A stretch of 64,000 nt of DNA from an uncultured cyanobacterium. GTDB lineage: Bacteria; Cyanobacteriota; Cyanobacteriia; Cyanobacteriales; CAWCAG01. The stretch is taken from assembly GCA_963793425.1 (NCBI GenBank), contig CAWCAG010000009.1:672001-736000 (forward strand). Reading direction: 5' to 3'. The notes under the pieces were generated by a model. The model saw nothing but the letters and a program-made list of their open reading frames with translations. It was not told the DNA's origin and made no database searches. Below, in pieces: positions 35,737-35,996 of this stretch. Both the position numbers and the translations under genes were made by a program. Numbering within the stretch: position 1 is the stretch's first letter; every line of letters begins with the position of its first letter.

Positions 35737-35996
35737 GGGGAGGTTGTCTAAAAGGCAAGACACCGTAGAAAAGTTTTAAAACGGTTCCCACAAGGACAAT
35801 CGGGTTTTCCTTAGTAAGGTCAAAAGTTGCATCGCGACATTCCCTGAATGGGCAAACGGGTAACAGGTTGCAGAGGCACTGAAAGGAATTAATAGTCCGA
35901 AATGGGGGTGGTTCCCATTTGCTGTAAAGGTAGTAAGGAAGCACTTTTCCTGAAAGTTACCGTCGGTTGATGCGGGTTCAAATCCCGTCCTCTCCA
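35737..35996 (+). ncRNA. tRNA-like RNA with Ala identity and a ~190-nt structured insert in place of the anticodon arm
   Basis: GGGGAGG/CCTCTCC-A acceptor (G3.U70), D stem GTCT/AGAC, T arm GCGGG-TTCAAAT-CCCGT. Confidence 0.75.

Follow-up and report, generated by a model that had tools for sequence, protein, structure and literature searches.

A tRNA-shaped RNA with a large structured domain, encoded in long tRNA arrays of some filamentous cyanobacteria

A tRNA-shaped element and its relatives

We analysed 64,000 nucleotides (nt) of DNA from an uncultured cyanobacterium of the order Cyanobacteriales (GenBank assembly GCA_963793425.1, contig CAWCAG010000009.1, positions 672,001 to 736,000); this whole stretch is called the window below. 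It contains an array of transfer RNA (tRNA) genes and, inside the array, a tRNA-shaped element that we named X. Positions in X are numbered as n = window coordinate − 35736, and the coordinates of its parts are collected in Table 1. ARAGORN, when introns were allowed, placed here a tRNA with precisely the ends 35737 and 35996, an intron of 191 nt and the arbitrary anticodon ACC. The D arm and the T arm are separated by about 190 nt. X was missed both by ARAGORN with default settings and by the tRNA model of Rfam. In Rfam scans, which included a permissive scan of window positions 35650-36200, no family of Rfam 15 fitted X or five of its homologues. An earlier interpretation made from the letters alone (the sequence-only reading) had suggested checking novelty with the Rfam models for transfer-messenger RNA (tmRNA), group I introns and tRNA, and these gave no confident match to a known family. 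In addition, no description of X came to light in literature searches or under the terms looked up in the main texts of two papers on tRNA arrays (PMC8421152, PMC10272220), although the supplementary array maps of PMC8421152 could show it. Judged by its sequence, X appears to be a member of an RNA family not yet catalogued.

Within the same order, 401 genomes from 142 genera were sampled, and 22 of them, belonging to 10 genera, contain full-length X with 76-82% identity. Among 61 relatives, a full-length match was obtained only in the window's genome and one other; two further matches comprised just 20-25 nt of the T arm, and the same-genus and same-family genomes of this set gave no match. 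For the collection of homologues, scans required the exact 20-base core pattern of X and the hits were then confirmed by nhmmer. The species-representative genomes yielded 57 loci, 54 of which were confirmed; the remaining three (L041, L050 and L067) were discarded as chance matches to the pattern. Similarly, 21 of 25 metagenome loci were confirmed. The core pattern had no match in viral contigs, and a phage origin of X was rejected. The carriers include many Microcoleus and also Leptolyngbya, Lusitaniella, Symploca, Aerosakkonema, Aliterella, Adonisia and Argonema. Genomes and metagenomes together gave 98 copies with 74 distinct sequences. Alignment A2, on which the counts below are based, holds the 70 distinct full-length sequences, including the window's copy; the partial copies L078, L095 and L085 and a 3'-truncated tandem copy (L045b) were left out.

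The window's genome has no second copy of X, and one copy per genome was found. A covariance model of X 120-235 detected no free-standing domain and no distant relative among 151 genomes across the phylum; its five matches were the window's own genome and four genomes of a single genus, all of them known carriers already. Homology to the relatives ends at X 1 and X 260. Beyond these points no alignment was obtained, as would be expected if X is excised at tRNA-like ends.

Several natural variants were observed. A short form without X 69-115, the peripheral arm described below, occurs at L033, L062 and L084 (and L086). One Microcoleus carries in tandem a second, 3'-truncated copy (L045:1924-2138), and at L078:1439-1620 a 5'-truncated copy is fused behind the 3' half of a different tRNA.

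Structure of X across its homologues

The folding energy of the single sequence did not stand out (z = -0.38; an equally good fold was reached by 59 of 200 shuffles), and the support for the structure of X comes from the comparison between sequences, not from folding energy. A model was built from covariation screens and an independent RNAalifold run and tested on the 70 sequences. It is nested, with 66 pairs in 14 helices and no pseudoknot. Standard pairs filled 97.7% of its cells, compared with 37.9-56.8% when the partners were slid by 1-3 columns, and 16 pairs had changed on both sides, compared with 2-6 in the slid controls. None of 500 shuffles reached the observed values of pairing and covariation. 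An earlier version of the model with 56 pairs gave the same picture, and RNAalifold independently found most of the helices. Support is strongest for the closing stem S1, where four of the six pairs changed on both sides, for Hg, with three such pairs, and for Ha, Hd and He, with two each. The sequence-only reading had pointed to homologues and covariation as a check on the insert; the 70 full-length sequences, with the insert conserved and its pairs covarying, bear it out. It is very probable that X represents a real structured RNA family.

Table 1. Position of X, its structural parts and the surrounding tRNA array in the window
Feature	X positions	Window coordinates	Strand	Evidence or remark
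tRNA array: Cys, Tyr, Ser, Met, Gly, Arg, rRNA fragment, X, Lys		31526-36140	+	all on + strand; interrupted by four protein genes
X, whole tRNA-shaped RNA	1-260	35737-35996	+	260 nt; ARAGORN ends, homology limits, 70 aligned homologues
Acceptor stem, 5' strand (holds G3)	1-7	35737-35743	+	99.4% paired with X 253-259
D arm	stem 10-13/22-25	35746-35761	+	G18 and G19 in loop; pair counts, conservation
Anticodon-arm-like hairpin	stem 27-30/45-48	35763-35784	+	14-nt A-rich loop in the window's copy
Small hairpin Hs	50-52/58-60	35786-35796	+	RNAalifold; 52:58 is CG 39, UG 22, UA 4, unpaired 5
Closing stem S1, 5' strand	61-66	35797-35802	+	pairs with 35964-35969; 99.0% paired
Peripheral arm, stacked helices Ha, Hb', Hc	68-73/116-121, 81-83/107-109, 90-94/98-102	35804-35857	+	96.3%, 99.0% and 99.7% of cells paired
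Helix Hg, 5' strand	123-128	35859-35864	+	pairs with 35956-35961; 99.5% paired
Most conserved stretch, including hairpin Hx with variable loop	129-164; Hx 149-151/160-162	35865-35900	+	alignment
Adjacent hairpins Hd and He	165-170/178-183, 184-187/193-196	35901-35932	+	99.5% and 100% paired
Hairpin Hf	201-204/210-213	35937-35949	+	100% paired, one-side changes only
3' strands of Hg and S1	220-225, 228-233	35956-35969	+	pairing counts
T arm, loop TTCAAAT	stem 236-240/248-252	35972-35988	+	98.9% paired
Acceptor stem, 3' strand with U70; discriminator A73 (X 260)	253-259, 260	35989-35996	+	no CCA encoded

The two ends of X together look like the body of a tRNA. An acceptor stem GGGGAGG/CCTCTCC followed by A, a D stem GTCT/AGAC, a G3:U70 pair with A73 and a canonical T arm (GCGGG-TTCAAAT-CCCGT) had all been read from the sequence, and all of them were confirmed. 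In the D stem, pair 10:25 is GC in all 70 sequences, 11:24 is CG in 69 and UA in 1, and 12:23 is CG in 68, while 13:22 is mostly unpaired. The nucleotides that form the tRNA elbow (U8, A14, A15, G18, G19 and, in the T loop, U54, U55, C56 and A58) are invariant or conserved in at least 90% of the sequences, so that the elbow of X is intact. No variation at all was seen at A14, A15, G19, T241 and A245; G18, T242, C243 and A260 are conserved in 90% or more of the sequences. At 3:70, 68 of the 70 copies have G:U. In its top four acceptor pairs (G1-C72, G2-C71, G3:U70, G4-C69) and in A73, X is identical to the genome's four tRNA-Ala genes and to its tmRNA. G3:U70 together with A73 is the established determinant of alanyl-tRNA synthetase.

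The sequence-only reading had the anticodon arm replaced by the insert. A short hairpin resembling an anticodon arm is in fact kept, and the domain of about 185 nt follows it and ends two bases before the T stem; it thus occupies the position of the variable arm of class II tRNAs. The hairpin is non-canonical, with a stem of 4 base pairs (bp) and a loop of 11-16 nt in the relatives, compared with the canonical 5 bp and 7 nt. The loop starts with A-R-A-A-A and contains no conserved triplet. Its last stem pair, 30:45, is UG in 46 sequences, UA in 14, CG in 5, GC in 3 and unpaired in 2.

The large domain is closed by S1 (6 bp), which opens into a three-way junction with two branches, a dispensable peripheral arm and a core. 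Examples of covariation in S1 are pair 64:230, UA in 50 and CG in 15 sequences, and pair 62:232, GC in 61 and AU in 5. The Ha-Hb'-Hc arm is regarded as peripheral because the variants L033, L062 and L084 lack X 69-115; its internal loop, AGUA opposite GAA, may be a loop-E-like motif. The core branch consists of several small hairpins and a nearly invariant strand of 36 nt, X 129-164, which has 20 invariant positions and is mostly unpaired in the model. Hx, which lies in this stretch, is 100% paired, with G:C changed to G:U in one sequence.

The helices that had been proposed for the insert from one sequence fared differently in the alignment. The hairpins GTTGC/GCGAC (99.7% paired in the 70 sequences) and AAATGGG/CCCATTT (99.5%, two pairs changed on both sides) held, whereas TTCCTTA/TAAGGAA was paired in only 63.8%. 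GGTAAC/GTTACC is a genuine helix, Hg, with three pairs changed on both sides, but it is nested in the supported model and does not form the suggested pseudoknot. ATTCC/GGAAT can always be paired, yet only one of its sides varies, and three shortened variants lack it. Of GAAAAGT/ACTTTTC only the four central pairs remain: 33-35/210-212 are A-U in 70 of 70 sequences, and 36:209 is CG in 59, AU in 3, UG in 2 and unpaired in 6. Two candidate pseudoknots, GGAC/GUCC and AUUCC/GGAAU, were considered; the same bases are accounted for by local hairpins, and no covariation was found.

We also noticed that U210-U212 have three mutually exclusive partners, almost always pairable: Hf, X 33-36 and X 136-138, the last of which belongs to a longer alternative helix found by RNAalifold (X 129-144). 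The competing sites for the U-rich strand X 209-213 lie at window positions 35769-35772, 35865-35880 and 35937-35949. U209 occurs only together with A36 (3 of 3 copies), and six other copies with A36 keep G209. Such competition could mean a switch, or could arise by chance from A-rich and U-rich runs.

The tRNA arrays around X

The array in the window is short, and the protein genes that interrupt it encode a Macro domain protein, an aspartyl protease, an RNA ligase with a tRNA-binding domain and a NADAR protein, the NADAR gene lying just upstream of X. When flanks of up to 1.5 kb were inspected, tRNA genes were found near X at 49 of 58 distinct genomic places. All 286 of these flanking tRNAs share the strand of X, and Ser(tga) is the first tRNA upstream of X at 38 of the 58 places. 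Whole arrays from four genomes contain 20-40 tRNAs, with X near the 3' end, and keep the order Asp, Glu, Cys, then Ala, His, Ser, then X, then Arg or Lys; a fifth locus has only three tRNAs around X. X is a fixed member of long tRNA arrays in some filamentous cyanobacteria. Since essentially all amino acids are represented in the large arrays, X is no stand-in for a missing tRNA. A promoter-like site (31364-31392) precedes the first array tRNA in the window, and in the array region promoter-like or terminator-like sites were not in excess over shuffled sequence.

According to the main texts of two studies, the long tRNA arrays of Anabaena are induced by translation inhibitors (PMC8421152, PMC10272220). 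The main text of the first reports that they aid survival and that 23 of 26 Anabaena array tRNAs are charged in vivo, judges three undetected tRNAs of this array to be pseudogenes, and presents the arrays as groups of tRNAs to which some protein genes are linked (PMC8421152).

The ends of X (acceptor, D and T parts) are most like the array tRNA-Ser(gct) or Ser(gga); Ser ranked first in 2 of 5 arrays, and for a Microcoleus-type copy (L042) the first three ranks were all taken by Ser(gct). The array tRNA-Ser genes start with GGAGAG (gct, gga), GGAAGA (tga) or TGGAAG (cga), and X starts with GGGGAGG and ends with CCUCUCC-A. In view of the resemblance to tRNA-Ser, X may descend from a class II tRNA whose identity was switched to alanine and whose variable arm grew.

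No protein gene constantly adjoins X in the arrays examined, and the neighbours vary. Besides RNA ligases, other arrays with X carry genes for NADAR, microbial PARG, Macro, Tpt1, PIN, HEPN, GNAT, a DHFR-like protein and an extra EF-Tu. Enzymes for the removal of ADP-ribose (Macro, NADAR, microbial PARG), the RNA 2'-phosphotransferase Tpt1 and RNA ligases are interleaved with the tRNAs (window 32098-32616, 33803-35092 and 35206-35685; L108:5240-12489; L111:12906-13856). This set resembles a toolkit for ligase-dependent repair or splicing of tRNA, and it might reveal natural substrates of bacterial Tpt1. The extra EF-Tu gene lies in or just after several X arrays (L111:7026-8255, - strand; L018:1-473, - strand; L020:3058-3259, + strand), and in Microcoleus arrays a DHFR-like (RibD_C) gene lies directly 3' of X.

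Other observations concern the array tRNAs and the window itself. A 77-nt copy of a piece of 23S ribosomal RNA (rRNA) lies in the array at 33535-33611 (+ strand), right after tRNA-Arg(tct). It matches positions 1080-1157 of the Rfam large-subunit (LSU) rRNA model with 61 bits; aligned with the genome's real 23S genes, it shows 87% identity over 55 nt. The fragment recurs at the corresponding place of the Lusitaniella array (L108:6606-6688, 54.5 bits). This region is presumably the L11-binding GTPase-associated centre, and one may speculate that the fragment is a conserved rRNA mimic or decoy, for instance for L11 or thiopeptide antibiotics. The tRNA-Lys(UUU) gene adjoining X (36042-36140, + strand) has a T loop of 31 nt and otherwise scores 57.7 bits as a tRNA. 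In the X homologues L021/L066, L103 and L106 the T loop is interrupted at the same position by a similar insert, which is about 25 nt long and contains two small hairpins. These T-loop inserts look like a recurrent small insertion or mini-intron; a strict regular expression for the insert matched only the window's tRNA-Lys. Outside the array, the nitrogen stress-induced small RNA NsiR1 was found at 53072-53128 (- strand, 47.9 bits). We take NsiR1 to belong to heterocyst-forming cyanobacteria, in which case the window would come from such an organism.

What X may be

We consider, with a probability of roughly 0.55, that X is a tRNA-shaped RNA of a new family that does not decode: it would be transcribed together with the array, cut out like a tRNA, provided with CCA and chargeable with alanine, and its large domain would be the working part. 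X shares acceptor, T arm and elbow with the neighbouring tRNAs, and on these features RNase P and the tRNA 3'-end enzymes would be expected to excise it. Maturation like a tRNA and chargeability with alanine by alanyl-tRNA synthetase are probable from the anatomy; that X is actually charged has about an even chance. With its anticodon-arm-like hairpin X would be unable to read codons. The domain of about 185 nt may serve to bind a protein, the ribosome or a small molecule, and would engage this partner during the array's response to translational stress.

Several points weigh against this. In 2 of 70 copies the pair 3:70 is G:C, and the acceptor stem is invariant throughout, so that selection on G3:U70 itself cannot be separated from general conservation. 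Another tRNA outscored Ser in 3 of 5 arrays, and the derivation from tRNA-Ser is moderately supported. In four copies, four bases are absent from between S1 and the T stem, and three copies carry an extra insert in the T loop. The sampling is biased, since Microcoleus supplies most of the copies and the exact 20-base core motif was demanded. Finally, the function given here to the domain is entirely inferred.

One of the nearest known counterparts in design is tmRNA, and the sequence-only reading had described X as tmRNA-like. This stands for the acceptor, of tRNA-Ala type with G3:U70 and A73, and for the T arm; X also has a large structured region in place of decoding and no working anticodon. 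The remainder of the likeness was lost. tmRNA has a D loop without a D stem, whereas X has a D stem that covaries, as well as a separate hairpin resembling an anticodon arm, and its domain is nested without demonstrated pseudoknots. The tmRNA model scored 18.2 bits on X, against a threshold of 47, and covered only the T arm and acceptor (11-13 bits in the homologues); ARAGORN called no tmRNA in the window. No tag frame is conserved, as had already been suspected: the frame starting at the aligned GCA is 2-27 codons long in the 70 copies, and the codon itself is GCA in 49, GCC in 10 and another in 11. The genome has a standard tmRNA elsewhere, with the tag ANNIVPFARKTTAVAVA, and X as a tmRNA was rejected. 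A functional relative of tmRNA without a tag, which would be charged with alanine, carried by EF-Tu, accept the nascent chain on stalled ribosomes and leave without tagging it, is a different proposal. It would suit the acceptor end shared with the genome's tmRNA and tRNA-Ala, the loss of anticodon function beside a kept acceptor, T arm and elbow as EF-Tu needs them, the extra EF-Tu gene in some arrays and the link of arrays to survival under translation inhibitors (main text of PMC8421152). Nothing, however, replaces SmpB, for which the genome has a single gene far from the array and no dedicated one; together with the D stem, the variable frame, the low tmRNA scores and the normal tmRNA already present, this makes the proposal rather unlikely.

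An intron-bearing tRNA was the other possibility raised from the sequence, whether with a degenerate or new self-splicing ribozyme or with cleavage followed by joining by the array's RNA ligase. ARAGORN does call such a tRNA in the window's copy, the 5' exon-like CCGU pairs with a downstream ACGG in the manner of P1, and tRNA splicing that depends on a ligase uses enzymes of types that are encoded in the arrays, namely an RNA ligase with a tRNA-binding domain, Tpt1 and Macro. Cyanobacterial genes for tRNA-Leu(UAA) and tRNA-fMet carry group I introns of about 200-250 nt, and X resembles them as a tRNA-shaped cyanobacterial gene with an insert of that order and a hairpin pairing the 5' 'exon' downstream. 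No consistent spliced tRNA emerges, however. ARAGORN made no intron-tRNA call in 61 of 70 copies, and the remaining nine gave eight different anticodons. The anticodon stem expected after splicing, the CCG/CGG of the sequence-only reading, fails, as 27:230 pairs in only 16 of 66 sequences and the would-be 3' strand covaries instead with X 61-66, in S1. The only P1-like helix ends at 30:45, where the U:G of a splice site is found in just 46 of 70 copies. Group I models gave no match at E up to 10 in 35650-36200 or up to 5 in five homologues. Unlike in the group I intron tRNAs, the insert lies in the variable-arm position and not in the anticodon loop, and its removal leaves no functional tRNA; tRNAs for essentially all amino acids are supplied by the arrays anyway. 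We are therefore confident that X is not an intron-bearing tRNA, and regard the splicing proposal as very unlikely.

X might also act in cis as a part of the array transcript, as a processing platform, a 3' stabiliser or a sensor of maturation or read-through. It usually comes late in the run of tRNAs, close to the 3' end and directly followed by variable cargo genes, which would suit such a role, and the three exclusive pairings of U210-U212 would suit a switch; complete tRNA ends, the elbow and the sharp loss of homology at X 1 and 260 point instead to a separate, excised molecule, and the downstream content differs between genomes, so that we find this improbable. Lower still we place an inactive relic, a tRNA-Ser pseudogene with an insertion carried along passively with the array. 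Damaged copies do exist (the second, 3'-truncated copy at L045, the 5'-truncated L078 and those with T-loop inserts), and three undetected tRNAs of the Anabaena array were judged to be pseudogenes (main text of PMC8421152), but compensatory changes in 16 pairs, pairing in 97.7% of cells over 70 sequences, a nearly invariant stretch of 36 nt and retention in at least 10 genera speak against a relic.

We return to a non-decoding, tRNA-shaped RNA that is probably matured as a tRNA, and compare it with other known RNAs. Like class II tRNAs (Ser, Leu), X has an extra arm, closed by a stem, that follows the anticodon stem and precedes the T stem. The extra arm of class II tRNAs measures roughly 13-21 nt, however, and that of X about 185 nt, and X has an anticodon loop of 11-16 nt and no conserved anticodon. 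In addition, the array tRNA-Ser genes listed above have A3 paired with U70, whereas X has G:U at 3:70 and the discriminator A. YrlA, a bacterial Y RNA, is likewise a non-coding RNA with a tRNA-like module near RNA repair genes, whereas the two ends of X meet in an acceptor stem, as in a real tRNA. The YrlA model matched the X region with 24.3 bits against a threshold of 69, but this match spans the T arm of X and the D arm of the next tRNA, which do not belong to one molecule. RNAC and RNAD of phage T4 (the 'species 1 and 2' stable RNAs) have tRNA-like ends and are encoded in the T4 tRNA cluster. Compared by description, X resembles them as a small RNA encoded among tRNA genes, and differs in being cellular and larger and in having an alanine identity and a covarying domain. 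In a passage of PMC9697503 the two are called 'RNAs of yet unknown functions'. Mimicry of rRNA by the insert was rejected: X 49-232 scored 25 against the genome's rRNA operon, and 100 shuffles scored 22.3 ± 1.9 (maximum 27).

X belongs to the broad, known kind of tRNA-shaped RNAs that do not decode, and its architecture is new, with a class II-like body, an alanine identity, a conserved domain of 185 nt in the variable-arm position and a fixed place in stress-induced arrays. The description of X as a novel aminoacylatable tRNA mimic is upheld as far as anatomy goes, that is, for a conserved family with an alanine-type acceptor, an elbow and a covarying domain that falls into no Rfam family. 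It is rather unlikely that X is a second bacterial aminoacylatable tRNA mimic beside tmRNA, charged with alanine, non-decoding and made only when the stress-induced array is active. If this were true, the domain would take X to ribosomes or to a factor of translation or RNA repair, and alanine would be accepted or donated outside decoding, for example to release stalled nascent chains without a tag.

For annotation, X provides an RNA family, missed by standard tRNA and Rfam scans, with a structure and an alignment ready for a covariance model. For the biology of these cyanobacteria, it shows that many long tRNA arrays hold, besides their tRNAs, a conserved and highly structured RNA that would look like a tRNA to the enzymes of maturation and charging and would not decode. 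If it is charged with alanine, X would be a rare bacterial tRNA mimic beside tmRNA, combining an alanine end with a large functional domain, and further roles of the arrays under translational stress would become directly testable.

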